Positions 4,355 through 31,454 of a stretch of DNA of 32,600 bases are shown piece by piece. Every line of letters starts with the position of its first letter. Position 1 is the stretch's first letter. Origin of the DNA: an uncultured Candidatus Saccharibacteria bacterium (lineage in GTDB: Bacteria > Patescibacteriota > WWE3 > UBA101185 > UBA10185); assembly GCA_964480825.1 (NCBI GenBank), contig CAYZRJ010000001.1, forward strand, positions 55,154 through 87,753, written 5' to 3'. Under the pieces are notes generated by a model. It was not told the DNA's origin. It saw only the letters and a list, made by a program, of their open reading frames with translations, and did not search any database. Position numbers and translations under genes: made by a program.

Positions 4355-4372
4355 TATTTTTATCCTTTCGCA

Positions 4373-4558: not shown

Positions 4559-4580
4559 AATTTCGAGTGAAATGAGAAAT

Positions 4581-4624
4581 TATATGAGGAAGCGCAGGTG
4601 CAAAGCACCGAGCAAGCTCATATA
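4581..4624 (-). other. Structured rplE-rpsN spacer (nested stem-loop)
   Basis: Outer inverted repeat TATATGAG/CTCATATA encloses GGTGC-AAA-GCACC. Confidence 0.6.
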
Positions 4625-4625
4625 T

Positions 4626-7669: not shown

Positions 7670-7673
7670 AGTC

Positions 7674-7703
7674 TAGTCCTTTGGGACGGACGCTTTAGCG
7701 TCA
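7674..7703 (-). repeat. Stop-codon-anchored double hairpin (rpsS to rplV)
   Basis: mRNA sense T-GACGC-TAAA-GCGTC-C-GTCC-CAAA-GGAC-TA, starting at the rpsS TGA. Confidence 0.8.
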
Positions 7704-7988
7704 CTTTGTAGCTTCGGGTGCTACGCCTTTCTTTGATGAGTGAGCTCTAAAGGTTCTTGTAGGTGCAAACTCTCCTAACTTATGACCAACCATAGCTTCG
7801 GACACAAAAATCGGCAAAAACTTCTTGCCGTTGTAGACTTCTATTGTCATTCCAACCATTTCCGGAATAACCGTGGATCTTCTTGACCATGTTTTTATAC
7901 CGGATTTAGAACCGGTTTCTTTGGCTTTTAAAACCCTTTGTTGTAGTTTTTCTTCTATATAAAATCCTTTTCTAAGTGACCTACTCAT
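7701..7988 (-). CDS. rpsS: 30S ribosomal protein uS19
   Basis: [20 protein letters not shown]. Confidence 0.99.
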
Positions 7989-7998
7989 AGTTTTATCC

Positions 7999-8826
7999 TC
8001 ACTTTAAGTGCCTTGATTTCACAACTGTATAATCTGTTTGATGTCTTTTTCTGGTTCTAACGCCTCTTGCAGGCTTGCCCCATGGTGTTTTTGGTCCGGG
8101 CATACCAATACCGGTTGTCTTGTAAGAACCTCCGTGCGGGTGACCTTTTTTAGGATTACCCATCGCGACACCTCTAACTGTCGGTCTAACACCCAAATGT
8201 CGATTTCTTCCGGCTTTACCCAAGCGTACATTTCGTTGTTCCATGTTGGTCAAGGCACCTATTGTAGCATAACAGCGCCCAGAAATCCTTTTTACTTCGC
8301 CGCTCGGCATCTTTAAATTTATCATTCCGGCATCTTTTGCTATAACAACAGCGTAGCCACCTGCCCCACGAATTAAAACACCGCCTTGACCCGGATTTAG
8401 CTCAACATTGTGTACCTGCATGCCCAAGGGAATATTTTCTAAAGGCATCGCGTTTCCGGCTGTTGGCTCGCTTTTCTCGCCGGAGAAAAGTATCATTCCG
8501 GTCTTTACGCCCTCGGCGGCTAAAATATATCGTTTTTCCCCGTCAACATAAGACAATAGTGCTATATGCGGACCTCGGTTCGGATCATATTCAATCGAAA
8601 GAACTTTTGCCGGAATATCTTTTTTATCGCGTTTAAAATCTATAATTCTATACAATTTTCTCGAACCTATTGATTGATGTCTCACAGATACTCTTCCACC
8701 ACTTCTTCCTTTGGCACCACGAATACTTAAAGTTAACCCTTTCTCAGGACGAACTTTATCAACTTCTCTTACCAAAGTTTTTTGTGAACGCTTAGATGAA
8801 GTTGTTGGTTTATATGTTCTAATCAT
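7999..8826 (-). CDS. rplB: 50S ribosomal protein uL2
   Basis: [29 protein letters not shown]. Confidence 0.99.
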
Positions 8827-9125
8827 TTTTGCGCTTTCTCGTGCGGTGCGACATCAATTTTTTGACCTTCTTTTATAGTAACAATTACCTTTTTTCTTTT
8901 GGCGGTTTTTTTAAATCTGCCTGATTTACCCATTCTTCTTTTTTTACCCGGCAAAATTATAACGTGAACTGACGTAACGTCAACGTTATAAAGTTTTTTG
9001 AGTTCTCGTTTAACTGTTCCTGCACTGGCGTCCTCGGTAACATGAAAAACGTATTTACCGTTTTCACTCAACCACATGCTTTTTTCGGTAATTATTGGTT
9101 TTAATACAAAGGCACTTATTCTCAT
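8823..9125 (-). CDS. rplW: 50S ribosomal protein uL23
   Basis: PIITEKS, KKVIVT; lies between rplD and rplB. Confidence 0.97.
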   Translation of the reverse strand: MRISAFVLKPIITEKSMWLSENGKYVFHVTEDASAGTVKRELKKLYNVDVTSVHVIILPGKKRRMGKSGRFKKTAKRKKVIVTIKEGQKIDVAPHEKAQK

Positions 9126-9718
9126 TATTTACCTCCCAATCTTTGTTCTAATTTTTCGACTGCATTCTTTGAAAATACTATATTATCAGCTCTAACCACT
9201 TGGTAAGCGTTAAGTCTGGTAGCATCGGCCAGATCAACGTCTTTAATATTTCGCAGGCTTGTGCTGATTTCTCTTGTAAGAATGTCGGCAACAAACAACG
9301 TCTTTCTGTTTAGTTTTAATGTCTTTAGTAGCTTTGATGCATCTTTGGTTTTACCTTTTAGTGCATCAAATGAAGAAACAACGATCAAGTTATCCTCTTT
9401 TACTTTTTCTATCACGGCAGTTATCAACGCGGTATTCTTTAAATCTTTGCTAATATCTAAATTCCAACTTTTTGGTTTTGGACCAAAAACAATACCTCCG
9501 TGTCTCCAAAGAGGTGTTCTTTTACTGCCCACTCTTGCTCGACCCGTACCTTTTTGTGCCCAGGGTTTAATTCCGCTTCCAGATACCTCACCTCTGGTTT
9601 TTGTAGACGATGTACCTTGTCTTTGGTTGGCCATATACACTCTTAGATATTGATTTAAAACCTCGGGTTTGGGATCAACACCAAATATTTTTTTGTTTAA
9701 AGTCAGTTCTATTTTCAT
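9125..9718 (-). CDS. rplD: 50S ribosomal protein uL4
   Basis: RQGTSSTKTRGEV, KPWAQKGTGRAR. Confidence 0.99.
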   Translation of the reverse strand: MKIELTLNKKIFGVDPKPEVLNQYLRVYMANQRQGTSSTKTRGEVSGSGIKPWAQKGTGRARVGSKRTPLWRHGGIVFGPKPKSWNLDISKDLKNTALITAVIEKVKEDNLIVVSSFDALKGKTKDASKLLKTLKLNRKTLFVADILTREISTSLRNIKDVDLADATRLNAYQVVRADNIVFSKNAVEKLEQRLGGK

Positions 9719-9723
9719 ATATT

Positions 9724-9754
9724 TAGACGGTACTCCGTCGGACGCTTAGCGTCA
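9724..9754 (-). repeat. Stop-codon-anchored double hairpin (rplC to rplD)
   Basis: mRNA sense T-GACGC-TAA-GCGTC-C-GACGG-AGTA-CCGTC-TA, starting at the rplC TGA. Confidence 0.8.
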
Positions 9755-10192
9755 TTCAACAACCTTTATCTTTAAAGCAGAGTTTCTGCTTCCCGGAACC
9801 GGTCCGGAAACCAATAGCTCTTTTTTTTCGGTATTAACACCGACTATTTTTAAACCCTTTATTGTTACCGTATCATTGCCGTGTCGTCCTGCCATTTTTT
9901 TACCCTTAAAAACTCTTCCGGGAGTTTGACCTCCGACAGCACCCGCCGAACGTGGTTTTGTAGACTGACCTCGTGTTGCCATTTCTCCGTGAAAACCCCA
10001 TTTTTTCATGGCACCGGTCCAACCTTTACCTTTGGACGTTCCGGTTACTACAACATCTTTATTGGATAAATTTTCGGCAATATCAGATGAGCACAGAACT
10101 TTGGTAACTGTAATAACAGCTCCAGTATCGCTAAAAATTTGCGACATCTCCTGTTTTATTCCTTTTATTAATATTTTTTCTTTCTGTTCCAT
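9752..10192 (-). CDS. rplC: 50S ribosomal protein uL3, internally shortened (146 aa)
   Basis: GIKQEMSQIF, VTGTSKGKG, QTPGRVFKGKKMAG, GPVPG; start reassigned to ATG 10192. Confidence 0.95.
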   Translation of the reverse strand: MEQKEKILIKGIKQEMSQIFSDTGAVITVTKVLCSSDIAENLSNKDVVVTGTSKGKGWTGAMKKWGFHGEMATRGQSTKPRSAGAVGGQTPGRVFKGKKMAGRHGNDTVTIKGLKIVGVNTEKKELLVSGPVPGSRNSALKIKVVE

Positions 10193-10245
10193 ATTTCTAC
10201 GAGCTTGCGAGTGGAAATACTTTGGCAAAACCAAAATATATCCTC

Positions 10246-10270
10246 AAAAAAAATGCGCCCGAAGGACGCA
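10246..10270 (-). terminator. Intrinsic-terminator-like hairpin between rpsJ and rplC
   Basis: mRNA sense UGCGUCC-UUC-GGGCGCA followed by U7. Confidence 0.6.
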
Positions 10271-10314
10271 AAAAACGCACCTTAGATTGTAAAAAACTCA
10301 ATTAAGTTCCTTTT

Positions 10315-10344
10315 GGGCCGTAAACGGCTCGCGCTGAAGCGCTA
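10315..10344 (-). repeat. Double hairpin variant inside the rpsJ-rplC spacer
   Basis: mRNA sense TA-GCGC-TTCA-GCGC-GA-GCCG-TTTA-CGGC-CC; same TAGCGCT start as other copies but not at an annotated stop. Confidence 0.6.
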
Positions 10345-10402
10345 AGTTTTTTATCATTTTTTTAAACATACCCACTAACAGGGCTCTCAGACCGATAATT
10401 TA

Positions 10403-10723
10403 TCACATTTTAAGTGAAATACCAACACCTGCGGGCAAGCTCAACCTGGAAAGGCTTTCCACAGTAGAACTCGTTGGATTTAAGACTTCTATAACCCTTT
10501 TGTGGGTTCTTAATTCGAACTGCTCACGCGATCTTTTATCAATGTGTGGCCCTCTAATCACTGTGAAACGTTCGATTCTGGTCGGTAACGGAACGGGACC
10601 TACAATTTTGGCACCTGTTCTTATTGCAGTATCAATAATTTTAGAACAACTTATGTCTATAATTCTACTGTCATATGATTTGAGCTTTATTCTTATTTTT
10701 GCCTCTTTTTGTACTTTCGCCAT
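10403..10723 (-). CDS. rpsJ: 30S ribosomal protein uS10 (NusE)
   Basis: [28 protein letters not shown]. Confidence 0.99.
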
Positions 10724-10731
10724 ATACCGCC

Positions 10732-10759
10732 AAAAAAGCCCCGCGTTGTAGCGCGGGGC
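10732..10759 (-). terminator. Intrinsic terminator after tuf
   Basis: 8-bp GC stem GCCCCGCG/CGCGGGGC followed by U6 in mRNA sense. Confidence 0.75.
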
Positions 10760-10774
10760 CTTTGAGTTTCAACT

Positions 10775-11956
10775 TTATGCAGATACCTTTGTGATAACAC
10801 CTGCTCCGACCGTGTGTCCGCCTTCTCGAATAGCGAAACGCAATCCTTCTTCTAAGGCGACCGGAGTAATCAACTTAACCTTGATGGTAACATTGTCACC
10901 CGGCATAACCATCTCCACACCTTCGGGAAGAGTGATTTCACCTGTAACATCAGTGGTTCTAATGTAAAACTGTGGTCTATAACCGCTAAAGAACGCCTTG
11001 TGTCTTCCGCCCTCTTCTTTGGATAAGACAACGATCTCTGCATCAAAGGATGATAGTGGTTTTACTGAACCCGGTTTTGCCAAGACTTGTCCTCTTTCCA
11101 CCCCTTCTCTATCAATACCTCGAATAAGTATTCCTACATTATCTCCGGCCTGACCTTCTTGCATTGATTTCTTGAACATTTCAACGCCTGTAACAACTGT
11201 CTTAACCGTGTCTCTGATACCAACGATTTCTATTTCTTCGTTGAGTTTTACTTTACCTCTTTCAATTCTTCCGGTTACAACTGTTCCGCGGCCGGAAATT
11301 GAGAAGACGTCTTCAACAGGCATTAAAAATGGTTTGTCCAAATCTCTTACCGGTACAGGAATGTATTCGTCAACCGTGTCCATTAATTTAACAATGGCTT
11401 CGATAGCTTTTTCGTCGCCTTCGATTGCTTTCATTGCCGATCCTCTGATTATAGGGGTTTTGTCTCCGGGAAATCCGTACTTAGTTAAAAGTTCTCGAAC
11501 TTCAAGTTCGACAAGTTCCAAAATTTCCTCATCCTGTACCATATCGCATTTATTTAAGAATACGACTATAGAAGGTACGTTTACTTGTTTGGCTAACAGT
11601 ATGTGTTCTCTTGTTTGAGGCATCGGGCCGTCCGGTGCGGAAACAACTAAAATAGCGCCGTCCATTTGTGCGGCACCGGTGATCATATTTTTAATATAAT
11701 CGGCGTGTCCCGGAGCGTCAATATGGGCGTAGTGCCTTTTTGCTGTCTCATACTCAACGTGAGTAATGTTAATTGTAATACCTCTGGTTCTCTCTTCCGG
11801 AGCTTTGTCTATGTTTTCAAAAGCAACGTAGGTGGCTGTTCCTTTGGAAGCCAAAACTTTTGTAATTGCCGATGTTAACGTTGTCTTACCGTGGTCTACA
11901 TGACCAATAGTTCCGATGTTAATATGCGGCTTATTTCTAACGAATTCAGCTGTCAT
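10775..11956 (-). CDS. tuf: Elongation factor Tu
   Basis: [23 protein letters not shown]; start reassigned to ATG 11956 (MTAEFVRNK). Confidence 0.99.
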
Positions 11957-12057
11957 AATATTGTACTTTCTTGCGAAAAATATATACACTAAATGCAAAT
12001 GATAGTTAATCAAATTAAAGTGCAAAAATCAAGGGTTTTTCCCTTTAGAACAGGAAG

Positions 12058-14139
12058 CTATCTTGCCGCGGCACTTTTTATTTGTTCAGCCACACTCGTT
12101 GGAACCTCCTCGTAATGGCTTGGTTCCATAGTAAAACTGGCTCTTCCTTGGGTCATACCTCTTATTTCAGTAGCATAACCGAACATTTCTGCTAGTGGTA
12201 CTTTGGCCTTAACAACACGGGCATTTCCTCTTTGGGTCGTTTGCTCAATCTTTCCTCTTTTACTTGATAAATTACCGATAACATCGCCCATAAATTCTTC
12301 GGAAACAATAACCTCGACATCCATGATAGGTTCTAACAAAAATGTGTCTGCAACACGCTGGGCGATTCTCATACCGTCAATAGTAGCCATCTTAAACGCC
12401 ATTTCACTTGAGTCAACTTCGTGATAAGAACCGTCATAAAGTGTTACTGCGATATCTACCAAAGGATAACCGGCGATAATACCGCATTCGACAGCTTCTT
12501 TGACACCTTTTTCAACTGCAGGTATATACTCTCTTGGAATTTTGCCTCCGACGACTTTATCTATGAATTCAACGCCTTTACCGCGCTCTAAAGGTTCGAT
12601 CTTAAAGATAACGTGACCATATTGTCCGCGACCGCCGGATTGTCTGATGTGCTTTCCTTCTATCATATCTACTTTTTTACGAATTGTTTCTCTGTACGCA
12701 ACTTGTGGTTTACCTGTATTAACTTCGACATTAAACTCTCTTTTCATACGGTCAACGATAATTTCCAAATGTAGTTCTCCCATTCCGTATAAAACCGATT
12801 GGGAAGTCTCTTCGTTGGTTTTCATTCTCAAAGTTGGATCTTCCTCTAAGAACTTTTTGATTGCATCTGACATTTTATCTCGGTCAGCTTTAGTTTTGGG
12901 CTCTAAAACTATTCCGATGACGGGATCTGCAAAAGTAATTGATTCTAATAATATCGGATTTTCTTCTGTGCAAAGCGTATCTCCGGTTTTTGCATCCAGA
13001 CCCACTGCCGCTCCGATTTCACCCGCAGAAATTTCTTTTAACTCTTCTCTGTGATTTGCGTGCATTAAAAGGATACGACCCAATCTTTCTTTAGAATCCC
13101 TTGTGGAATTAAAAACGTACGCGCCGGTCTTAATTTTTCCGGAATAAACTCTAAAATATGTTAAACGACCCACATAAGGATCGGTTTGAATTTTAAATGC
13201 TAAAGCAACAAACGGTCCGTTTGGATCCGGCGATAAGTTAAGTTCATCGCCTTCTTCGGTGTGACCTTTTACCTCGCCGACATCACTTGGAGAAGGAAGG
13301 TAATCTACAATTCCGTCGAGTAATTTTTGAACGGCTATATTTCCTAGTGCTGAGCCACAAAACACAGGGTATATTTTTGCAACAATTGCTAGTTTTCTTA
13401 TTCCGGATTTTATCTCTTCTATTGATATTTCTTGTCCTGATAAAAATTTCTCAATTAATGTGTCGTCTGATTCGGCTATTTTTTCAACCAACTTGTTTCG
13501 GTATTCTTCCATTTTTGATTTCATGTCTTCGGGAACTTCGATCTCGGTAACTTCAACACCAAGTTTTCCGGAAAATTTGTAGGCTTTTTTTTCGACTAGA
13601 TCTATTATCGAATTAAATTCGCCCTCGATACCAATTGGAAGTTGCACTACAATAGCATTTGGAGTTAATCTTTCGTGAATTGATGCAAGAGACATATAAA
13701 AATCTCCCCCGACTTTGTCCAGTTTGTTAGTAAAAAATAACAAAGGTACGTTATATTTTTCAGCTTGCCTGAAAACTGTTTCTGATTGAGGTTCTACTCC
13801 CTGAGAAGAATCCAATAAAATAACACCACCATCTAAAACTCTCAAAGAGCGCTCTACCTCCGCAGTAAAATCCACGTGTCCGGGGGTATCAATAATGTTA
13901 ATTCTGTTGTCGTGCCAAAAACAAGTTGTTGCCGCTGAGGTAATTGTAATACCGCGCTCTCTTTCTTGAGCCATCCAATCCATTTGAGTGTCACCTTCGT
14001 GAACTTCACCGATTTTGTGGGATTTTCCTGTGTAAAAAAGAATACGCTCGGTGGTAGTGGTTTTTCCTGCATCAATATGAGCAATAATGCCGATATTTCT
14101 GATTTTATTTAGGGGGTAGTGTTTGGTGTCATCAGCCAT
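12058..14139 (-). CDS. fusA: Elongation factor G
   Basis: [29 protein letters not shown]. Confidence 0.99.
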
Positions 14140-14152
14140 ATGTTTCTAATAA

Positions 14153-14620
14153 TTAAAACCTGGCGAAGTGGGCAAAAGCTCTGTTTGCATCAGCCATTCT
14201 ATGAGTGTCTTCTTTCTTTTTAATTGCATCTCCTGATCCATCAACTGCGTTTCTAAGTTCTTCAAAAAGTCTGTCAACCATCGGTTTACCGCTTTTTCTG
14301 CGAGCTGAATCTACTATCCACCTCATTGCTAATGCTTCGGCTCTATCGTGTTTTAACGGCATAGGTACTTGGTATGTGGCACCACCTACTCTTCGCGAAC
14401 GAACTTCTTGTGAAGGCGTAACATTTTTCATAGCTTGTTCAAACATTTTTAATGCTTCTTTTGAATCTTCGTTTAGTTTTGCCATTGAATCGTAAACTAT
14501 TTTTCGCGCTAAAGATTTTTTACCGTCATACATTATTGTATGAATAAACCGTTCGACAGCTCTCGATTTATAAACCGGATCAGCTTCTATTATTCTTTTT
14601 TTTGCTTTTTTAGTACGCAT
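14153..14620 (-). CDS. rpsG: 30S ribosomal protein uS7
   Basis: SRRVGGATYQVP, MADANRAFAH. Confidence 0.99.
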   Translation of the reverse strand: MRTKKAKKRIIEADPVYKSRAVERFIHTIMYDGKKSLARKIVYDSMAKLNEDSKEALKMFEQAMKNVTPSQEVRSRRVGGATYQVPMPLKHDRAEALAMRWIVDSARRKSGKPMVDRLFEELRNAVDGSGDAIKKKEDTHRMADANRAFAHFARF

Positions 14621-14623
14621 ATG

Positions 14624-14653
14624 TAGTCCTTTGGGACTAGCGCGTTAGCGCTA
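14624..14653 (-). repeat. Stop-codon-anchored double hairpin (rpsL to rpsG)
   Basis: mRNA sense TAGCGC-TAAC-GCGCTA-GTCC-CAAA-GGAC-TA, starting at the rpsL TAG. Confidence 0.8.
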
Positions 14654-15073
14654 AACTTTAGCTTTCTTTGGTCTTTTTGTACCGTAAATTGATCTCGAAG
14701 TTTTTCTATTTGTCACACCGGCTAAATCTGATACACCCCTTACAATTGTAAATTTAATACCCGGAAGGTCCTGAATCTTACCTCCTTTTACAACTACTAC
14801 CGAGTGCTCTTGCAAATTGTGACCTTCACCCGGAATGTAAGCCGTAACTTCACGTCTATTGGAAAGTCTAACTCTTGCAACTTTTCTTAAGGCAGAGTTT
14901 GGTTTTCTGGGTGTTTGAGTCTTAACCTGCAAAACTACCGCACGTTTAAAGGGACTTGGAAATTTAACTACTCGTCTTTTAATACTGTTAAATGATTCCT
15001 TTAGTCCAGGAGTTTTTTCTTTTTGATTCTTAGGTTTTCTTCCTCGTCTAACGAGTTGATTTATTGTCGGCAT
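14651..15073 (-). CDS. rpsL: 30S ribosomal protein uS12
   Basis: MPTINQLVR start at 15073; [25 protein letters not shown]; has the ~13-aa insertion also seen in Firmicutes. Confidence 0.99.
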
Positions 15074-15074
15074 A

Positions 15075-18000
15075 TTAGTCCAATTTAGCTCTCTCACCTG
15101 TTGGGATCAAGCGACCTATGATAACGTTTTCTTTTAATCCTAGCAAGTTATCTACTTTTCCCGAAGCTGCTGCGTCGGTCAGTATATTGCTTGTTTGAAT
15201 AAACGAGGCAGCAGATAAAAAGCTATCTGTATTAAGAGATGCCTTAGTTATACCCAATAAAGTAAGTTTTGCTGTTGCCGGCGTGCCTCCTCCGGCGATA
15301 ACTTCCTCATTTTGTTCTTCGAAAGTTGCTTTTGTTGCGAGTTCGCCGGCCATAAAGTTTGTGTCGCCTGATTCTTCGATTCGTACGTGGTTAAACATTT
15401 GTTTTACGATAACTTCGATGTGTTTATCGTTTAAAGCAACACCTTGGGACGCGTAAACTCTTTGGACTTCTTCGATGATGTATTTCTTGGTTTCATCAAC
15501 ACCAACTGTTCTTAGCAATTCTGTTAAATCTAAATTTCCTGCTGTTAATTTATCCCCACGAGCAACCAGTTGTCCATCTTCAACAACTATTTCGGATACC
15601 GGATCAACCATATATTCAACCATCGGAGGATCTTCGTTTAAATCTAATGCTTCGACAATAACTTTTCTTTCGTCACCGTTTCTAATAACGCGTGCTCTGC
15701 CCGGAATTTCTGTCATTGTAGACATAAACTTAGGTGATCTGGCTTCAACAAGCTCTTCTACTCTTGGCAAACCCTGGGTAATGTCTTTTCCAACAATTCC
15801 TCCTGTGTGAAAGGTTCTCATTGTTAACTGAGTTCCCGGTTCACCGATTGATTGTGCCGCTTGAACACCAACCGCTGTACCCATACCGACTAAGCTTCCT
15901 GTCATAAGGTCTGTCCCGTAGCACATCGCACACATACCACGTCTGGTTTCACAGTGTAACGGCGATCTAGCATAAATATACCCGATGCCTGATTTAACTA
16001 TGTCATCGATATTTGATCTGGTTAAAATAGTATTTCTCTTGAAAAGAACTTTTTTACCTTCCTTGACGTCTACTGCTAAAACTCTACCGGTAATTCGGTC
16101 AGCAAAGCTCTGTAAAATTGTACCTTCGCCAACTTTTAATTTTCTACCCTTTTCGGTGTTACAGTCGTGCTCTCTTATTAAAACGTCTTGAGAAACATCA
16201 ACGAGTCTTCGGGTCAGATAACCTGCATCTGCAGTCTTTAGACCTTTGTCAACCAAACCTTTTCTTGCACCACGGGCGCCGACAAAATACTCAAGCGCGG
16301 AAAGTCCGTATTTAAAGTTTCCGATGATAGGCATTTCTACTACTTTACCTGTTGGATCCGAAACCATACCTTTCATACCTGCTATCTGTCGTACTTGATC
16401 CCTTGAGGCTCTTGTAGAACCCGATTTTACCAGTATTTTTACCGGGTTCGTGTCGTCAAGATTATTCCATATTGCGTTATCAACTTGAGTAATAACGCCA
16501 TCCCAAGCTTCAGTGGTTAGTCTTCGCGCTTCTGTTCTGGTAATCAAACCTCTTTTGTAGTTTTTATCTATTTCAGCAACCATCGCTTTACCCTCTGTAA
16601 TAAGTCCTGTGCGCGAAGCCGGAACTTGGATATCAGCAAGCGACACTGACTGACCCGCAATTGTTCCATATCTAAGACCCATGTCTTTAATATCGTCAAT
16701 TAGTTTTACAACAACCTCGTGTTCTTCGCTGTCGAACGCGTTTTGTAAAAGAGCCACAACTTTCTTTTTATCCATCGTGTCATTTATGTACCCGAACGAG
16801 GCCGGAACTACTTCGTTAAAGTAAACTCTTCCTGCGGTTGTCTCTATAATTTCACCGTTTAATTGGATTTTCATTTTTTGGCGTAAATTCAGCTCTTTAT
16901 TTGCATCCAAAGCGTAGGTCATTTCGAATTTAGATGAGAAAACTCTGTCGAACACAGGTAGTTTGTCATCAATTGAGGTTACAAAATAGACGCCAAACAA
17001 CATGATCTTTGACGGAACCGACATTGGTGAACCGTTTGACGGGTTTAATAAATTGTTTGTCGAGATTAATACGGTGCGCGCCTCTTCTTTGGCTTTTTCG
17101 CCCAACGGCACGTGCACTGCCATTTGGTCACCGTCAAAATCTGCATTGTAGCCGGAGCATACGCACAGATGTAAACGAATAGCATTGCCCTCGATCAATT
17201 TTGGATAAAATGCCTGTATACCAAGTCTCCAAAGTGTAGGTGCTCGATTTAGTAAGACCGGATGTCCCACTACGACTTCGCCTAAAATATCCCAAACTTC
17301 CGAGCTTCTTTGATCAACAAAAAATTTGGCGCTTTTAACATTTGGGGCAAAACCTCTTGCTAATATTTCTCTTAAAACTATTGGCTTAAATAATTCAAGA
17401 GCCATTTCTTTTGGCAAACCACATTCGTTTAATTTAAGGTTAGGTCCGTTGATAATAACTGCCCGCCCCGAATAGTCGACTCTTTTACCGAGTAAATTCA
17501 AACGGAATATACCCTGTTTACCTTTGATCATGTCGGCAAGCGATCTTAGTTCTTTTTTACCTCTTGTTACTCTTGTTTTTTGTCTCTGTTTAGACGAATC
17601 AAACAACGCGTCTACGGCTTCCTGCAACATTCTTTTTTCATTTCGTACAATAATTTCCGGCGCGCCAAGATCCAAAAGTCTTTTCAAACGATTATTTCTG
17701 TTTATTAACCTTCGATATAAATCATTTAAATCAGAACTTGCGAAACGCCCGCCCTCGAGTTGTACCATCGGTCTTAAATCAGGAGGAATAACGGGTATGA
17801 CATCTAAAACCATTCTTTCTGGATCAACGCCCGAACGTCTATACTGCTCAACAACCCGCAGTCTTTTCGAAATTTTTGCAGCTTTTTGTCCTTTTGCTCT
17901 TGCTAGATCTTCTCTTAATTTGCTCGAAAGGGTATTTAATTCCATATCAGCGAGTATGTTTTGCAAGGCTTCGGCGCCGATTTCCAATGTACAGAATCTG

Positions 18001-22033: not shown

Positions 22034-22127
22034 GTTTTTTATTTTTTATGACTTCCGTGACTTGTTATGTCTTTTAATTATAGTACTAACGAAAAAGTTT
22101 CGTCTAATGATATTCGAAACGTAGGAC

Positions 22128-22156
22128 AGCCTATCATAGCAACAAAAACTTGTCAA
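22128..22156 (-). promoter_or_regulatory. Sigma70-type promoter for rpoBC
   Basis: TTGACA-17 nt-TAGGCT with extended -10 TG. Confidence 0.65.
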
Positions 22157-22159
22157 CAA

Positions 22160-22708: not shown

Positions 22709-22743
22709 ACCTAAAATATAATGATACTAGTTAACGTCTATTC

Positions 22744-24360: not shown

Positions 24361-24381
24361 ATTATTTCCCGTGGCAATTTT

Positions 24382-26937
24382 TTAGTGTACCCACGAAATT
24401 TTGCCGTGGCAAAATTTGAACTTCTTCCCGCTGCCGCAGTGACAGGAATCGTTGCGTCCGATCTTTTCTTGACCCGAAATTATTTTCTCGACTTTTAATT
24501 CCCGGCCCGATTCACCGATAACTTTTCGTTCGCTGGCCTCTTCGGATACACCCGTTTCAACATCGGCACTGTACTTATACTCAACGTTTTTCAAGTTTTC
24601 TTTTTGTGGATTTCTCAACAGTTCGGCCGGGTCTTGTAACCCTAAAAATCTTTGAGCAATGCTGAAATAAACTCTTGAAATTAAAATAGAGAATCTCTCG
24701 TGGCCCTCGTGTTTGTATTCAACCATCGGGTCTCGCTGGGCGTAGCCGCGCAAACCAATTCCGTCACGGATTTGGTCCATATCAACAAGATGTTCCATCC
24801 ATAATAAATCAACAACCGGTAAACTCATCTGTGCCACGACGTTTCCCCATATATTTTGACCTATCTGCTTTTTTCGTGTCTCCCAATCTTCTTTTGAAAT
24901 TTTTGCGTGCTCCGAAAGTTTTGATAAAAACCAATCTTCATGTTCATAATTTCCTTCGGAAATTTCAAGTATTCTTCGTCGCAATTTATAAATAACTTCC
25001 CGGTGAACATTCATAACATCATCCATTTCGACAACTTGTTTTCGTCGATCAAAATTAAGACCCTCTACTCTTTTTTGCGCGGTTTCTATGGACTTTGTAA
25101 CCAGCCCGGCTTCAAGTGGAACATTTTCATCTAACCCAAGTCTATCCATCATTTTTGTAATTTGCTCGCCACCAAAAATCCGCATTAAATCGTCTTGCAA
25201 TGAAACATAAAATTTGGACGAACCCGGATCTCCCTGTCGTCCGGCACGCCCTCTTAACTGATTATCTATTCGTCGAGATTCGTGGCGTTCAGTGCCAATA
25301 ATGTGTAGTCCCCCTGCGTCTATAACTTCAATTTGCTCGGGCTGATTTACAGGATCTCCTCCTAAAACAATATCGACACCTCGCCCTGCCATATTTGTCG
25401 AAATTGTAACTGCACCTTTTTTACCGGCTTGTGCAATTATCAATGCTTCGCGTTCGTGATTTTTTGCGTTCAAAATTTCGTGAGCAACACCGCGTCTACG
25501 TAATAATTCGTGTAACAACTCACTTTTTTCAACAGATGTCGTACCCACTAAGACAGGCTGACCTCTTTTATTTTTTTCGGTAATCTCGTCTGCGACTGCT
25601 CTAAACTTAGATGCTTCTGTTTTATAAATTACATCGTTACTATCAATTCTGTGTGTAGGTTTATTAGTCGGAATAACAACGACGTCCAAATTGTATATTT
25701 TGTAAAACTCTTCGGCCTCGGTTAAAGCGGTACCTGTCATACCCGATAACTTTTTGTACATCCTAAAGTAGTTTTGGTACGAAATTTCTCCCAAAGTTTT
25801 TGACTCCTCCTGAATCGCAACACCTTCTTTTGCTTCTATAGCTTGATGCAAGCCATTTGAATATCTATTATTGGCAAGAATTCTTCCGGTGAATTGATCA
25901 ACGATTAATACTTTTCCGTCCTTAACAACATACTCTTTATCTTTTTCGTACAAAGCTCGCGCGGTCAACGCCTGTTCAATCAAATGAACCATTTCAAAAT
26001 CTTCTTCGTAAAGATTTTTTGCCCCCAGCATGTTTTCAACTCTACGCACTCCTAAATCAGTTAAAGTTGCGTTTCTAAATTTTTCATCTACTTCATAGTC
26101 CGAATCTTTTACCAAAGCTTTGACTATTTTGTCGGCGTCGTGGTATCTATCACTTGGTTTAGAGTCACTCGAAGAAATGATCAACGGTGTTCGTGCAACA
26201 TCAATCAAAACGAAATCCACTTCGTCTACAACCGCAAAGTTGTGAGCTCCCCATTCCCCATTTTGATTCGTTTGCACCATATCCTTAAAACGATAAACCA
26301 TGTTGTCGCGTAAATAATCAAAACCAAATTGGTGGTTTGTTCCGTAGACAATGTCGCATTGATAAACCTGTTGTTTTGGTACTTCTTTTAGATGTTTAGT
26401 GTATGCGTCCTCAAACGTATTGTTTTCGTGAGTAGTATCAAAAACGTAACCTTTTTCTTCCATGATTACTCCAACCTTAATTCCAAGTTTTTCGTACAAA
26501 GGTCCCATACAACCCGCGCCGTGTCGGGACAAGTAATCATTTGGGGTAATAAGATGCACTCCTCGCCCGGCCAGCGAGTTTAAATAAAGAGGCAAAGACG
26601 CGACTAACGTTTTGCCTTCTCCTGTTTTTTGTTCAGAAATTTTCCCCTGGTGCAATATTATTCCCGACATCATCTGCACATCAAAGTGACGCATATTTAA
26701 TGATCGTTTACTTGCTTCACGAACAAAAGCATATGCCTCGGGCAGTATTTTATCTAAGTATTTATCCTGTGATGCTTCATCAAGTTTTTTAAGTTCATCT
26801 TTCCAATATTGAGTTTTTTCTTTTATCTGGTCATCGGTAAGCTTTTGGGTCTCGGGCTCGAATGCGTTTATTTTTTCAACAATCGGTCGTAAAAGTTTTA
26901 TTTGTTTTTCGTTTGAATCAAAAAGCGATTTAAACAT
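24382..26937 (-). CDS. secA: Preprotein translocase ATPase SecA
   Basis: KTGEGKT, DEVD, TNMAGRG, HESRRIDNQLRGR, C-terminal SEC-C motif GRNDSCHCGSGKKFKFCH. Confidence 0.99.
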   Translation of the reverse strand: MFKSLFDSNEKQIKLLRPIVEKINAFEPETQKLTDDQIKEKTQYWKDELKKLDEASQDKYLDKILPEAYAFVREASKRSLNMRHFDVQMMSGIILHQGKISEQKTGEGKTLVASLPLYLNSLAGRGVHLITPNDYLSRHGAGCMGPLYEKLGIKVGVIMEEKGYVFDTTHENNTFEDAYTKHLKEVPKQQVYQCDIVYGTNHQFGFDYLRDNMVYRFKDMVQTNQNGEWGAHNFAVVDEVDFVLIDVARTPLIISSSDSKPSDRYHDADKIVKALVKDSDYEVDEKFRNATLTDLGVRRVENMLGAKNLYEEDFEMVHLIEQALTARALYEKDKEYVVKDGKVLIVDQFTGRILANNRYSNGLHQAIEAKEGVAIQEESKTLGEISYQNYFRMYKKLSGMTGTALTEAEEFYKIYNLDVVVIPTNKPTHRIDSNDVIYKTEASKFRAVADEITEKNKRGQPVLVGTTSVEKSELLHELLRRRGVAHEILNAKNHEREALIIAQAGKKGAVTISTNMAGRGVDIVLGGDPVNQPEQIEVIDAGGLHIIGTERHESRRIDNQLRGRAGRQGDPGSSKFYVSLQDDLMRIFGGEQITKMMDRLGLDENVPLEAGLVTKSIETAQKRVEGLNFDRRKQVVEMDDVMNVHREVIYKLRRRILEISEGNYEHEDWFLSKLSEHAKISKEDWETRKKQIGQNIWGNVVAQMSLPVVDLLWMEHLVDMDQIRDGIGLRGYAQRDPMVEYKHEGHERFSILISRVYFSIAQRFLGLQDPAELLRNPQKENLKNVEYKYSADVETGVSEEASERKVIGESGRELKVEKIISGQEKIGRNDSCHCGSGKKFKFCHGKISWVH

Positions 26938-26946
26938 ATCAAGGGG

Positions 26947-26955
26947 ATTATATCA
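26947..26955 (-). promoter_or_regulatory. Extended -10 promoter for secA
   Basis: TGaTATAAT ending 9 nt before the ATG. Confidence 0.6.
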
Positions 26956-26978
26956 CTATAATATTACCCAAAGCTTTG

Positions 26979-26987
26979 TGGTAAAAT
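26979..26987 (+). promoter_or_regulatory. Extended -10 promoter for the orphan ORF at 27021
   Basis: TGgTAAAAT ~33 nt upstream of the start; AAGGAG RBS follows. Confidence 0.5.
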
Positions 26988-27020
26988 CGCAGTATCAAAA
27001 CTGTTAAAGGAGAAACGCAC

Positions 27021-27320
27021 ATGTCTCAAACTTATCTTGATAAGGCACGCAAAGTAGCGGAATTGTTTGCGACCTCTTTCTTTAAGGTAGACAATCCGAA
27101 AATTGTTTGCAAGGGGAAGACTAAACTAGGATACTACTTTACAGCCAAACCTCCCAGAAACGAGATCATAACTTTGGTGGTAGATAGAACCTGCCAACTG
27201 ATCGAGATGTTTACGGGAGAAGCTACGATTGGGGATATTGAAAAAGGTCGCGGTAAGTTTGGCGAGTATGCGGCCGAAAAAGATGGGGCAAGATTCGGAC
27301 CAGCACCTGTCATAAACTAA
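27021..27320 (+). CDS. Hypothetical protein (99 aa)
   Basis: Fills the secA-uppP gap; has its own promoter-like site, AAGGAG RBS and downstream hairpin; no recognised motif. Confidence 0.8.
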   Translation: MSQTYLDKARKVAELFATSFFKVDNPKIVCKGKTKLGYYFTAKPPRNEIITLVVDRTCQLIEMFTGEATIGDIEKGRGKFGEYAAEKDGARFGPAPVIN

Positions 27321-27326
27321 TTTAAC

Positions 27327-27361
27327 AAAAGCCGAGCACTCTCAAAAAGTCCTCGGCTTTT
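27327..27361. terminator. Bidirectional terminator-like hairpin between convergent genes
   Basis: AAAAGCCGAG...CTCGGCTTTT. Confidence 0.7.
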
Positions 27362-28124
27362 ATTTATATATCAAGGCGAACAAAACTAACGTCAGAGCTA
27401 AGCGATAATAAATAAAAATATTTAATCCGTGAGATTTTAAATAATTTAACAAAAAGTGCACAACGGCCAGTCCCATTAAAAAACTTGAAATAAATCCGAC
27501 CGCCAATATATTTGTACTCACGTCTATTGTTGCCCAATCTGTACTTACCAATTTGTACCCTCCGGCCAAAACAACAATTGGAATGGACATTAAAAACGAA
27601 AGTCTGGCCGCGTCAACTTGTCCAAGCCCCGATAACATTGCACCCGATATGGTTGATCCCGACCTAGATACTCCCGGAAAAAGCGCCAAAGCTTGAAAAA
27701 ATCCAATTTTTATACTTTTAACTGCGGTAACGCCTTCGATTCTCATATGCTCCTTGCCAAACTTTTGAGCGTATACCATTAACAATGTGCCTAAAAACAT
27801 AAATAAAGTTACACTGCCAACTGATCTAAATCTTTCTTCAAAATCACTTTCGAATAAAAATCCTAAAACTCCGGCAGGAATAGAACCTAGCAGTATGAAA
27901 AAAAGTAACTTTGATTTGGAAGTTATCAAAATCATTAGATCAGACCAAAAATAAACCACTAAAGTTAGTGCGGTTGCTAAGTGCAGAGTTGTATCAAAAA
28001 CCAAAGGTTGTGGCTTCCAAGCAGGAATATGCGAAAGTAGAGCTAGATGGCCAGAAGATGAAATGGGCAAAAACTCGGACAGGCCCTGAACTATTCCTAA
28101 CACCAGTGCTTGAATTAAGGTCAT
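27360..28124 (-). CDS. uppP: Undecaprenyl-diphosphate phosphatase (BacA)
   Basis: QGLSEFLPISSSGH, PGVSRSGSTI, AARLSFLMSIP. Confidence 0.98.
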   Translation of the reverse strand: MTLIQALVLGIVQGLSEFLPISSSGHLALLSHIPAWKPQPLVFDTTLHLATALTLVVYFWSDLMILITSKSKLLFFILLGSIPAGVLGFLFESDFEERFRSVGSVTLFMFLGTLLMVYAQKFGKEHMRIEGVTAVKSIKIGFFQALALFPGVSRSGSTISGAMLSGLGQVDAARLSFLMSIPIVVLAGGYKLVSTDWATIDVSTNILAVGFISSFLMGLAVVHFLLNYLKSHGLNIFIYYRLALTLVLFALIYK

Positions 28125-28810
28125 ACTCTTGCGTAAATTAATACATTATCGCTGTTGGTGTAACCTGCAACAACAAGACTTTTTACATCACTAAAAAATT
28201 CCGAAACGTATTCTATAAATATATTAACATCCTCCTGATGATGCTCTCTGTAAATACGGTTAAATATTATCATGCCCTCGGGAGCCACTAGTTTTTTTAA
28301 ATTCCCTATGAAATTGCCCGTTTTTCCCAAATCCGGATATTTTTCACCAACGTAAATGTCTACTATGACAACGTTAAACTGGTTTTCTCTGACATCAAAG
28401 CTACTGGGCTCAATGACAACGCGTAGGGCATCGTCCACAATTACGCGATTATTTGCCACGGCTGAAAGGTTGAAATAGTTGTTAGCAATATCCACCATAG
28501 TCTGATCAATTTCGACGCTTGTCGTTGTAACATCGGGAAATTCTTGGTGTATTAAATGGACTAAGGTCGCACCACCCAAGCCAAGAAGTAAAACTTCGTT
28601 CAAATGAGTAAAATTTTCTTTTAAAAGATGAAGCATTTTTCCCCAATAAAGTTTGTGTGTATGGGGCGAATGGGGACTAATTGATTGGGAAATATTATCA
28701 ACAACAAGTCTTCGAACGTCTCCGAATTCAACGACTTTTATGTTTCCGTTATATTTTGATTCGGTCTCGTATATTACTTTTGGCGACAGCAATCCTGTGA
28801 AAATGTTCAC
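28121..28810 (-). CDS. Class I SAM-dependent methyltransferase, spermidine-synthase-like fold
   Basis: VLLLGLGGAT, VEID, VDDA, VVIVDIY motifs; GTG start; ATGA overlap with uppP. Confidence 0.8.
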   Translation of the reverse strand: MNIFTGLLSPKVIYETESKYNGNIKVVEFGDVRRLVVDNISQSISPHSPHTHKLYWGKMLHLLKENFTHLNEVLLLGLGGATLVHLIHQEFPDVTTTSVEIDQTMVDIANNYFNLSAVANNRVIVDDALRVVIEPSSFDVRENQFNVVIVDIYVGEKYPDLGKTGNFIGNLKKLVAPEGMIIFNRIYREHHQEDVNIFIEYVSEFFSDVKSLVVAGYTNSDNVLIYARV

Positions 28811-28816
28811 AAAAGG

Positions 28817-28825
28817 ATTATATCA
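28817..28825 (-). promoter_or_regulatory. Extended -10 promoter, probably giving a leaderless transcript
   Basis: TGaTATAAT ending 6 nt before the GTG start. Confidence 0.6.
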
Positions 28826-28851
28826 GTTATCTTTAGGTAAATAACTAAATA

Positions 28852-28885
28852 AAATCCCCACATACTTTGCAGTGTGCGGGGATTT
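28852..28885. terminator. Terminator-like hairpin after the 80-aa orphan
   Basis: AAATCCCC-ACATAC...GTGTG-C-GGGGATTT. Confidence 0.65.
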
Positions 28886-28895
28886 CTGGCGAGAA

Positions 28896-29138
28896 TCACA
28901 GTGTACGTATAACTTCGCCAGCAGAATTTTTAATGGATCCTATGACGTCGGGTTGATCCTGATAAGGCCATGGTAACGATTTGAAGATTAGACCGACGCG
29001 TTCGCCAAGAGTTAAGTTTGCTTTAGCGGGAACAACTACGCGTCTGTCTGAGGCCAAAGTAATCGTCTTATAACCCAAAAAAGGATCCGCTATGTGCGAA
29101 ACCGTGTCCTGTGCGTCCGGAACGAAATTAGCTGCCAT
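28896..29138 (-). CDS. Hypothetical protein (80 aa)
   Basis: AAAAGGAG-6 nt-ATG, directly after serS, followed by a hairpin. Confidence 0.75.
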   Translation of the reverse strand: MAANFVPDAQDTVSHIADPFLGYKTITLASDRRVVVPAKANLTLGERVGLIFKSLPWPYQDQPDVIGSIKNSAGEVIRTL

Positions 29139-29170
29139 TGTAGTCTCCTTTTCTATATAGTCGTATTGTA

Positions 29171-30451
29171 CTATAGGATCACATTTCGGTCAATAACATC
29201 AAAACCCGTGTATGGCCTTAAAACCTCGGGTATAACAATAGAACCATCTTTTTGCTGATAATTCTCCATGACGGCGGCAACCAAACGGGGTGTGGCCACA
29301 ACAGTATTGTTAAGCGTACTTACAAACTTTAACTCACCTTTGCTATCTCGGTATTTCATATTTAATCTTCGCGATTGAAAATCCAAAAAGTACGAATCAG
29401 AATGTGTTTCGCGATAAGTAGCTTGACCGGGAAACCAAGTTTCGACATCATATTTTTTTCGTTGCATAGCACCCATGTCACCCGTGCACATTAGTAACAC
29501 TCGATACGGCAAGTCAAGATTATGCAAAATGGTTTCTACATAACCCAACATTTTGTCGTGCCATTCCCGCGATATTTCTTCACCTTCGGGAACTAAGACA
29601 ACCTGCTCAACTTTATTAAAGTAATGAATTCGAAAGATTCCCTTGGAATCTTTCCCATAACTTCCGACTTCACGTCTGAAGCAGGGGCTAAGTCCGACCA
29701 TTTTTACCGGTAAATCTTTTTCTTCTAATATTTCGTCTGCGTAGTATGAGGTTAAAGATACTTCTGCCGTGCCGATTAAAGCCCGGTCGTCTTGGGTTTT
29801 GTAGTGATCCTCAATTCCCCACGGAAAATATCCTGTTCCTATCATATATTTTTTGTCTACCATTACAGGAACGCTCATCGGCGTAAAACCTTCTTTAACC
29901 ATGAAGTCTAATGCATAACGTAACAAAGCTTGCTCCAGTAACATTCCGGCTCCGGTTAAAAAGTATCCTCTAAAACCGGCGATTTTTGTACCACGTTTGG
30001 TATCAATAATGTTTAATTTTTCTCCAAGCTCAAAATGTTCTTTGACGATGAAATCAAATTTTTTTGGTTCGCCTACTTTTCGCAATATTACGTTTTCGGT
30101 TTCATCCTTTCCTATTGGAACGTCCGACGCGGGTACATTAGGAACCCACAATAATAGTTCGTCTATCTTGTCCTTAAGTTCTTTGAGTTCTTTTTCCCAA
30201 ACTTGAAGATCCTCTTTAACTCTTTTCGCCTCTTCGAGCAATTTAGTCTTTTCCTTCTTTTCAAGTGTGATAACTCCTTTTGAAAGGTTATTTTTTAATC
30301 CGCGATGAGTTTCAACTTTTTTTAGTAAATCTATGTATTTGTCGTATGTATCAACCAAAACGTCTACATCAACCGTTCCAACTAACTGTTTATCGATTAC
30401 CGCCTTTTTTATAATGTCTTTATTTTCCTTTATGTACCTTATATCCAACAT
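29171..30451 (-). CDS. serS: Serine--tRNA ligase
   Basis: MLDIRYI start at 30451; GTAEV, CFRREVGSYG, TLNNT..ATPR, ENYQ. Confidence 0.98.
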   Translation of the reverse strand: MLDIRYIKENKDIIKKAVIDKQLVGTVDVDVLVDTYDKYIDLLKKVETHRGLKNNLSKGVITLEKKEKTKLLEEAKRVKEDLQVWEKELKELKDKIDELLLWVPNVPASDVPIGKDETENVILRKVGEPKKFDFIVKEHFELGEKLNIIDTKRGTKIAGFRGYFLTGAGMLLEQALLRYALDFMVKEGFTPMSVPVMVDKKYMIGTGYFPWGIEDHYKTQDDRALIGTAEVSLTSYYADEILEEKDLPVKMVGLSPCFRREVGSYGKDSKGIFRIHYFNKVEQVVLVPEGEEISREWHDKMLGYVETILHNLDLPYRVLLMCTGDMGAMQRKKYDVETWFPGQATYRETHSDSYFLDFQSRRLNMKYRDSKGELKFVSTLNNTVVATPRLVAAVMENYQQKDGSIVIPEVLRPYTGFDVIDRNVIL

Positions 30452-30476
30452 TGTTGCAATTCCTATCTGTAATGGT

Positions 30477-30505
30477 AATATAGATTTCGAATCTCGAAAA
30501 GTCAA
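30477..30505 (-). promoter_or_regulatory. Sigma70-type promoter for serS
   Basis: TTGACT-17 nt-TATATT. Confidence 0.65.
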
Positions 30506-30563
30506 CGAAAAGTGGCTGTTTAGCCCGGCCGACAGTAACATAAAAATCCTCAAAAAGACTTCA

Positions 30564-30592
30564 TTGACCTCTTCCGGAGGTTTTGGTAAAAT
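30564..30592 (+). promoter_or_regulatory. Sigma70-type promoter for the infA-alpha operon
   Basis: TTGACC-17 nt-TAAAAT with extended -10 TG. Confidence 0.7.
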
Positions 30593-30665
30593 CGTCGGCG
30601 TTAAGTCTTTTGCCGATTGGGTTACCTTTAAAAGGTAAACGATAAAAAAAGGACAAAAAGATTAA

Positions 30666-30893
30666 ATGAGCACAAAAGATACAATTATAAAAGACGGTAA
30701 AGTATTAGAAGCTTTAATGAGCGGTCTTTTTAGAATTGATATCGATGACAGCGAAGATAAGACAGAGGTATTCGGTGTCTTATCGGGAAAAATGAGGAAA
30801 TTTAAAATAAGAATTTTACCCGGAGACCGCGTGAAGATAGAATTCTCACCACACGATTTGACAAGAGGAAGAATTTCTTACAGGTATAGATAA
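30666..30893 (+). CDS. infA: Translation initiation factor IF-1
   Basis: SGKMRKFKIRILPGDRVKIEFSPHDLTRGRI. Confidence 0.98.
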   Translation: MSTKDTIIKDGKVLEALMSGLFRIDIDDSEDKTEVFGVLSGKMRKFKIRILPGDRVKIEFSPHDLTRGRISYRYR

Positions 30894-30923
30894 GCAAGCT
30901 TGCGCCGCGTAACGGCATAAAAT

Positions 30924-31040
30924 ATGAAAGTTCGTTCGTCAATAAAACCTATTTGCAGAGAGTGCAAAGTAATTAAAAGGAAGGGTGTGCTAAGAGTTAT
31001 CTGCAAACGAAGCCCAAAGCATAAACAAAGACAAGGATAA
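30924..31040 (+). CDS. rpmJ: 50S ribosomal protein bL36 (not in the ORF track)
   Basis: Hand translation [38 protein letters not shown]; CxxC..C..H zinc ribbon. Confidence 0.98.
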
Positions 31041-31042
31041 TT

Positions 31043-31429
31043 ATGGCAAGACTTGCGGGCGTAGACATTCCAAACGATAAAAGGATAGAAATAGCTCTAA
31101 CTTACATTTATGGAATAGGTTTAACTTTATCCAAAAAGATTTTAAACGAAGCTAAGGTTGATTACAACAAAAGAACAAAAGATTTAAACGAAAGTGACAT
31201 CGCTGCAATTCAAGGGGCAATCACTAAAGCTGAATTAGCAATCGAAGGAGAGCTCAGAAGAAAAGTCCATCAAAACATAAGGCGTTTACAAGAAAACGGT
31301 AGTTATAGAGGTCATAGACACAAGATCGGACTTCCGGTGAGAGGTCAACGAACAAAATCTAACGCCAGAACACGAAAAGGTAAAAAGAAAACTGTAGGAG
31401 GGCAGAAAAAGAAACTCGCTAAGAAATAG
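31043..31429 (+). CDS. rpsM: 30S ribosomal protein uS13
   Basis: [27 protein letters not shown]. Confidence 0.99.
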
Positions 31430-31454
31430 CGCTTCGCGCTCGACCTTCGGTCTA
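31427..31454 (+). repeat. Stop-codon-anchored double hairpin (rpsM to rpsK)
   Basis: T-AGCGC-TTC-GCGCT-C-GACC-TTC-GGTC-TA, starting at the rpsM TAG. Confidence 0.8.

Follow-up and report, generated by a model that had tools for sequence, protein, structure and literature searches.

Repetitive extragenic palindromic (REP) sequences are palindromic repeats of 20-40 bp that lie mostly just 3' of open reading frames (ORFs), between co-directional or convergent genes (PMC3733652). The same text reports that REP termini often supply the TAG stop of flanking ORFs, that some REPs lie in frame inside genes, tRNA synthetase genes included, that their differences between strains are typical of mobile DNA, and that the CGTC super-family is without a dedicated transposase (PMC3733652). 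It gives miniature inverted-repeat transposable elements, or MITEs, as 70-300 bp long, with 15-30 bp terminal inverted repeats, a target-site duplication and a cognate insertion sequence transposase (PMC3733652), and Rickettsia palindromic elements (RPEs) are described as in-frame insertions of about 150 bp in genes (PMC10969869). Here we compare with these systems a double-hairpin element of about 30 nt that recurs at ribosomal-protein (r-protein) gene junctions in a 32,600-nt stretch of DNA, hereafter the window, from an uncultured Candidatus Saccharibacteria bacterium (assembly GCA_964480825.1, contig CAYZRJ010000001.1, positions 55,154 to 87,753). A preliminary description of the window had placed four copies at the stop codons of rpsS, rplC, rpsL and rpsM, and had favored a cis-acting RNA module over a REP/MITE-like repeat. 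With a probability of roughly three in four, we instead take these hairpin pairs to be copies of a dispersed palindromic repeat of the REP/RPE type, 28-33 nt long and particular to this lineage, which lands at TAA or TAG and brings its own hairpin-embedded stop codon. What is observed directly is the repeat family itself, where its members lie, the extra residues that homologues lack, and the sites that are empty in a close relative.

The element is one of a family spread through the whole genome (712,747 bp in 66 contigs, 38% GC, 94.4% complete, 91% coding). Fourteen copies were aligned with MAFFT and 12 kept as the seed of a covariance model; the other two, at rpsJ-rplC and C13:1895, were dropped because the alignment moved their hairpin 1 by one column. 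The model finds 20 matches at E<=0.1 on 14 contigs which, with the variant copy between rpsJ and rplC, make 21 units in 0.71 Mb, all of them short dispersed palindromes of 28-33 nt and within the size range of REPs. The four copies first described (E 2e-8 to 8e-6) are all among the seeds, but 8 of the 20 matches are not, including one on C51 (E 3.6e-6), two on C50 (E 2e-3 each) and one on C7 (E 6e-3). We excluded from the count of units the matches with E>0.1, namely C5:25066, two on C4 and a reverse-strand shadow at C1:64893; the 96 genome-wide matches to a more general double-hairpin descriptor served as candidates only.

Seventeen units are extragenic and four lie inside ORFs. Six of the 17 have r-protein genes on both sides and a seventh lies between nusG and rplK, a distribution not specific to r-protein junctions. 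By Pfam assignment, other units lie between ssb and rpsR, between a solute-binding protein gene and tsaD, between argS and a metallophosphoesterase gene, between a hypothetical gene and a family-4 glycosyltransferase gene, and next to several further hypothetical genes. Directly after the rpoD stop (C50:1-88), identical 32-nt units follow one another head to tail up to the end of the contig, and this tandem array is probably where the assembly breaks.

Folding predicts two adjacent hairpins in all four copies first described. Because single-copy z-scores against shuffles are modest (-3.5, -2.6, -1.9 and +0.1), folding energy alone is weak evidence. Family membership and pairing are stronger. 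In the 12-copy alignment 90% of paired cells can pair, compared with 79% in shuffles, none of the 500 shuffles reaching as high; both sides change in 6 of the 10 pairs, and structures slid by 1-3 columns pair in only 9-39% of cells. These tests uphold the double-hairpin plan of the preliminary description, and the covariation that it saw between stem 1 and the stop codon is real: at position 2 of the stop, 7 copies have a G-C pair and 3 an A-U pair, and at position 3, 7 have A-U and 3 have G-C, TGA copies pairing as G-C then A-U and TAG copies as A-U then G-C. The antisense strand folds as stably as the sense strand or better in 18 of 19 copies, and therefore we see no sign of mRNA-structure optimization. 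A count of wobble pairs by eye (about 3 G-U compared with 4 C-A/A-C mismatches) yields numbers too small for a sense-strand test.

The placement of the units is precise. In 12 of the 17 extragenic units the first three bases are the stop codon of the upstream gene, and a start codon follows within about 0-20 nt of the unit. These stops are TGA in eight cases, TAG in three and TAA in one, whereas ORFs of at least 100 residues genome-wide end in TAA 366 times, TAG 151 times and TGA 143 times; because stop usage at the anchored units differs from that of the genome, the stop is the element's own. At the other end, TA followed by A or G closes 16 of the 20 model matches, so that the TAG...TAG flank first seen around the rpsM copy proves to be a general feature. 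When the unit is removed in silico, an in-frame TAA or TAG lies directly past the last sense codon in 9 of the 12 anchored copies, with an ATG a few bases on, and these nine reconstructed junctions match the compact junctions that relatives have. The ssb/rpsR copy (C2:24959-24991, locus L001) has lost its anchoring stop by mutation, reading GGA for TGA, and ssb continues for two codons to a TAA in the loop of hairpin 1; this loop TAA is an in-frame second stop in three TGA-type copies.

These features would follow if a unit of the form T-(hairpin 1)-C-(hairpin 2)-TA inserted directly 5' of, or within, a TAA or TAG trinucleotide. Where the native stop at a tight junction provides that trinucleotide, the gene would stay intact: the first three bases of the unit (TGA or TAG, with bases 2 and 3 paired in hairpin 1) would become the new stop, and the native stop would be shifted to the 3' end of the unit. 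The family may have spread by insertion through some enzyme or through template switching, with TA(A/G) as the target, and co-orientation with the genes would then simply follow from where the sense-strand stop lies. Because a sense-strand stop 3' of the unit fixes its orientation, co-orientation is not independent evidence for a function. Nor is it universal, as had been supposed: the radA copy is inverted, as are two lone hairpin-2 units on C40. The hairpins in mRNA would be by-products, which may alter decay or the coupling of termination to reinitiation; in E. coli, a REP lying about 15 nt or less from a stop is reportedly able to stall ribosomes or cause transfer-messenger RNA tagging.

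The four intragenic copies can be recognized as insertions by comparison with homologues (Table 1). Those in pheT, miaA and a radical S-adenosylmethionine (radical-SAM) gene are co-oriented with their genes and read in one common frame (...TEYDLK, ...TEYGLK and ...PEYGLK, respectively), which is the sole forward frame without TGA at the start of the unit or TAA/TAG at its end. One open frame exists per orientation, and therefore copies of 27-30 nt survive as insertions of 9-10 residues in protein loops. The radA copy, read in its own orientation, also ends in TA+A.

Table 1. Element copies and adjoining genes in the window, and insertions of the element inside genes; insertions were identified in alignments with same-family homologues.
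Feature	Position in window	Strand	Description
rpsS/rplV copy	7674..7703	-	First 3 nt are the rpsS TGA stop; sequence agrees with the preliminary description; model E 1e-6; hairpin 1 GACGC/GCGTC; hairpin 2 is the variant GTCC/GGAC holding AAAGGA; ends TA then G, rplV ATG 4 nt on
rplC/rplD copy	9724..9754	-	TGA stop at start; top covariance-model match, E 1.9e-8; ends TA+A, rplD ATG 5 nt on
rpsJ-rplC variant copy (fifth in window)	10315..10344	-	Inside the 168-nt rpsJ-rplC spacer
rpsL/rpsG copy	14624..14653	-	TAG stop at start, its AG paired to CT; AAAGGA-bearing GTCC/GGAC variant as hairpin 2; ends TA+C, rpsG ATG 3 nt on
rpsM/rpsK copy	31427..31454	+	TAG stop at start; model E 3e-6; ends TA+G, rpsK ATG (31473) 18 nt on
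rpsS	7701..7988	-	Stop codon inside hairpin 1 of the rpsS/rplV copy; 57-75% identity to S19 of relatives
rplC as listed	9752..10234	-	Stop codon inside hairpin 1 of the rplC/rplD copy
Insertion in radical-SAM gene			~10 residues (LGASRSPEYG), missing from 4 homologues
Insertion in miaA			9 residues (RAPAPTEYG), missing from 11 homologues
Insertion in pheT			~10 residues in a variable loop, missing from 7 homologues
Insertion in radA			9 residues (SSKSGREAS), copy inverted relative to the gene, missing from 11 homologues

The sequences and ORF ends of the four copies agree with the coordinates first given for them. The fifth copy in the window, between rpsJ and rplC, is a divergent one: its stems are of 4 bp, it starts with a TAG 59 nt past the rpsJ stop, it lacks the terminal TA, and the covariance model does not match it even at E<=10.

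Comparison with relatives indicates that the element was inserted into junctions that work without it. Among 20 same-family genomes from as many genera, with L2 proteins 54-68% identical to that of the window, no comparable GC-rich hairpin insert is found at rpsS/rplV or rplC/rplD (each readable in 20 of 20) or at rpsL/rpsG (readable in 18 of 20). Their rpsS/rplV and rpsL/rpsG spacers run from -8 to +18 nt, typically reading TAAtATG and having no Shine-Dalgarno (SD) sequence, and the rplC/rplD spacer runs from -11 to +47 nt, being short wherever the start call is unambiguous; values above 20 nt reflect crude start-codon choice and not hairpin inserts. Lack of conservation at orthologous junctions is what the preliminary description itself had said would argue against a function. 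A metagenome contig recovered in a protein-guided scan, L104, shares about 90% identity with the window where the two align. It has a 32-nt gap that coincides exactly with the rplC/rplD unit, where its junction reads GAA TAA T ATG, and another of 27 nt that does so with the rpsJ-rplC unit. The two empty sites, together with the repeat family and the insertions in ORFs, support the REP/MITE-like alternative that the preliminary description had ranked second. Also missing from L104 are some 45-50 nt (roughly 10196-10243), in place of which two other aligned contigs have 7 letters.

Contigs from four groundwater or soil sequencing runs, aligned to positions 7000-15200 of the window, offer a hint of further variation in the form of lengths and gap counts only. 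One relative at about 93% identity falls 28 letters short, with 32 gap positions, across 7000-7994, where the rpsS/rplV unit lies, and has 32 extra letters at rplB/rpsS, where the window has no unit, with an apparent 24-nt re-alignment there; the rpsM copy's hairpin-2 motif is among the extra letters, seemingly in reverse orientation. Across the interval with the rpsJ-rplC unit, two relatives are shorter by 28-29 nt, and another, at about 90% identity, spans the rplC/rplD unit without a gap.

Farther afield the family is hard to find. With a threshold of E<=0.01, the covariance model is without a match in all 24 of the 24 other same-family genera, and has one weak match (E 0.007) among 16 more distant genomes. 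An exact degenerate-pattern scan of 185,579 species, each represented by one genome and our own possibly not in the set, returned no multi-copy genome and 7 single matches in unrelated taxa. Judged by these genome sequences, the repeat family is confined to this lineage.

Among described systems, REPs are one of the nearest to this one. The likeness lies in short, GC-rich dispersed palindromes 3' of ORFs, in ends that supply stop codons, in copies in frame inside genes, in sets of copies that vary among close relatives and, for CGTC REPs, in the want of a dedicated transposase (PMC3733652). The architecture differs: our unit consists of two different hairpins of 4-6 bp head to tail, while the REPs in that account have one stem of 8-9 bp or form a head-to-head dimer (PMC3733652). 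Unlike the GTAG REPs described there, the unit ends in T(GA/AG) and TA(A/G), with no unpaired GTAG on either strand, the reverse strand reading T/C-TAG, and unlike the CGTC REPs, which have an unpaired CGTC, an 8-9 bp stem led by A-T and a CCA-like tail, it has CGTC just where TGA-type copies form their 5-bp stems (GCGTC, CCGTC) and a tail of TA (PMC3733652). It differs from REPs linked to a RAYT (REP-associated tyrosine transposase) in that neither PF01797 nor OrfB_IS605 was found in this genome, and from REPs at large in having only about 21 copies, placed inside compact operon junctions near both neighbors, in a 0.71-Mb groundwater genome. With a unit of about 30 nt, no long terminal inverted repeats, no consistent duplication, and no DDE_3, DDE_Tnp_1 or rve domain found, the element does not fall within the MITEs.

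Mycobacterial interspersed repetitive units (MIRUs) are repeats of 40-100 bp that lie between the genes of polycistronic operons in the same orientation as the genes; at their ends they overlap the neighbors' stop and start codons, and they carry small ORFs, not hairpin pairs. Going by this general description, MIRUs share with our element the operon junctions, the co-orientation and the overlap with stops, but are longer and without the hairpin pair. To our knowledge, no transposase is known for RPEs. These resemble our element as palindromic repeats in a reduced genome that stand in frame in housekeeping genes and keep the ORFs open, as here in pheT, miaA, the radical-SAM gene and radA; described as about 150 bp long and mostly intragenic, they are set apart from units of about 30 nt, of which 4 of 21 are intragenic and 12 are on stops (PMC10969869). 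The r-protein leaders of Rfam are likewise structured RNAs in r-protein operons, but our copies extend beyond such operons and are not conserved in relatives. An Rfam covariance scan that took in the entire window at E<=1 found no match at any copy, in keeping with the earlier impression that this is no described r-protein leader; its lone match, to RsaJ (28767-28885, plus strand), reaches 24.8 bits where the gathering score is 100 (E 0.048) and is most likely due to chance. A full-text literature search found no description of REP-like repeats in genomes of the Candidate Phyla Radiation or Patescibacteria. Notable here are the strict anchoring on the stops of compact junctions, the pairing of the element's own stop in a stem, the very small genome and the want of a recognizable transposase; the behavior of the family is that described for REPs and RPEs.

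A number of observations weigh against a mobile repeat, or at least against a simple one. Y1_Tnp (PF01797, RAYT-type), OrfB_IS605, DDE_3, DDE_Tnp_1 and rve have no match in the 94.4%-complete genome, although control genomes respond to the same search. The boundaries of the insertions are ambiguous by 1-2 nt because T or TA is common to both ends of the unit, and no consistent target duplication can be defined, even from the two pairs of empty and filled sites (32 and 27 nt plus small spacer changes). We considered a TA...TA duplication rule, which fits the TAG-type, tandem and miaA copies, and rejected it since it fails for TGA-type and TGG-type copies. The evidence from relatives at 90-93% identity other than L104 is indirect, as it consists of lengths and gap counts. 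Compensatory changes keep both stems paired, stem 2 as had been claimed for it as well as stem 1. The motif AAAGGA in hairpin 2 stands 6-7 nt 5' of the ATG in the rpsS/rplV and rpsL/rpsG copies. Finally, by crude gene calls, true stops make up only 669 of the 6,672 TAA/TAG sites to be considered (10%), the other 6,003 being elsewhere in non-coding DNA, and yet 12 of 17 extragenic units are on a true stop, an excess of about 30-fold over the other sites (P ~4e-9).

This last result means that neutral insertion at any non-coding TAA or TAG is insufficient, and that finer targeting, survivorship or a benefit is needed. We think survivorship the likeliest cause, because in a deletion-prone genome that is 91% coding a unit wedged between two essential genes can be lost only by precise deletion while units in free spacers decay; imprecise deletion at compact junctions would harm the essential neighbors. 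Finer target choice or a modest benefit are the alternatives. Because simple target choice leaves the excess unexplained, there is room for stop-codon-specific targeting or selection, and in the boldest version that we can construct, a transposase-less double hairpin of about 30 nt would home to the TAA/TAG stops of coupled genes and swap in its stem-embedded stop, some r-protein copies having been recruited as a masked SD module opened by the terminating ribosome. We consider this version unlikely.

Rather improbable, in our estimation, is the explanation first proposed, that the double hairpin with its stop in stem 1 is a selected cis-acting RNA module for coupling termination to initiation, for marking a processing or stability boundary, or for binding a shared regulator. 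Such a module would account for the exact anchoring on stops with a start codon close by, for the strong excess at stops over other non-coding TAA/TAG sites, for compensatory pairs that extend to the stop codon itself, and for the AAAGGA ahead of two start codons. It would not account for copies at many unrelated junctions, for four copies inside ORFs, one of them inverted, for the tandem array after rpoD, or for antisense strands that fold at least as well as sense strands. The SD-like motif is missing from most copies, 20 related genera have no such element at the corresponding junctions, L104, close as it is, has none at two sites, and the junctions of relatives work with spacers of 1-10 nt and no hairpin. 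A role as cis-acting module of r-protein operons is accordingly not supported, and nothing here supports a selected RNA role.

About as improbable, if not a little more so, is that a selfish repeat was secondarily recruited at two sites, the rpsS/rplV and rpsL/rpsG copies having been remodeled into a masked SD sequence that restored coupling after the stop-to-start distance had been lengthened. These two copies share a hairpin-2 variant, GTCC-CAAA-GGAC, that occurs in no other model match, and are 76% identical across 41 nt that include a few flanking bases (repeat D9); their AGGA lies 6-7 nt from the ATG at junctions where relatives have no SD sequence. But only two copies are involved, one subfamily copied twice or gene conversion could explain their likeness, and the other stop-anchored copies are without any SD-like motif. 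The variant could reflect later recruitment or just one subfamily. That the units are chance GC-rich spacers or products of misassembly, as the modest folding z-scores might suggest, has a negligible probability and is refuted by pairing above all shuffled and slid structures, by model matches outside the seed set with E as low as 3.6e-6, and by a contig from a second sample that matches 7000-9540 with 1 difference.

A survey of the window confirms the earlier remark that most other junctions are short or overlapping. Within the S10-spc-str block, co-directional junctions without a typical unit are overlaps or spacers of at most 19 nt, with three exceptions, and those that bear an element measure 24-33 nt with a GC content of 0.52-0.58 by our own gene calls. 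The longer spacers without a typical unit are those of tuf/rpsJ, which is terminator-like, rplE/rpsN (67 nt) and rpsJ-rplC (168 nt). In the first (10735-10775, minus strand), a 9-bp GC hairpin and a run of six T lie directly past the tuf stop, which resembles a classical intrinsic terminator and has no relation to the repeat family. The rpsJ-rplC spacer (10196-10300, minus strand) holds another terminator-like hairpin, this one with eight T in a row, about 50 nt 5' of rplC; translation of rplC probably starts from an ATG near 10192 and not, as listed, from the TTG at 10234. After a junction-like TAAatatATG at its start, the rplE/rpsN spacer (4559-4625, minus strand) has a small GGTGC/GCACC hairpin and an ORF of 13 codons, and is possibly another, unrelated insertion into a once-compact junction. 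GC skew in the window tracks the coding strand, and skew does not separate replication from transcription as the orientation that the copies follow.

Elsewhere in the genome, two loci hold structures reminiscent of the unit. Between two minus-strand genes on C40 (locus L013, 745-865) there are two lone hairpin-2-like units and other small hairpins, opposite to the genes; the inverted hairpin-2 unit at about 779-792 ends in TA+A and the unit at 799-822 in TA+C. Between alaS and groES (C10, about 4355-4391; locus L012), just 5' of the groES start and about 70 nt past the alaS stop, lies a different double hairpin, with a 6-bp AGTCCC/GGGACT stem followed by a GCGC-type stem, which may be a diverged relative with the order of the hairpins swapped.

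The family carries a warning for comparative RNA analysis, namely that paralogous covariation among copies of a repeat is not proof of RNA function. For annotation, such repeats explain odd GC-rich spacers, TGA and TAG stops in a genome that prefers TAA, and insertions of 9-10 residues in otherwise conserved proteins. Because its placement on stops is precise, its own stop is paired in a stem and no transposase is recognizable, the family is a clean natural system in which to study the site choice of REP-like elements and the effects of stop-codon hairpins on coupled translation. If our reading is right, even a groundwater genome of 0.71 Mb that is 91% coding carries actively varying selfish palindromic repeats, with copies in its most conserved operons (S10, str, alpha and nusG-rplK) and in the essential genes pheT, miaA and radA.

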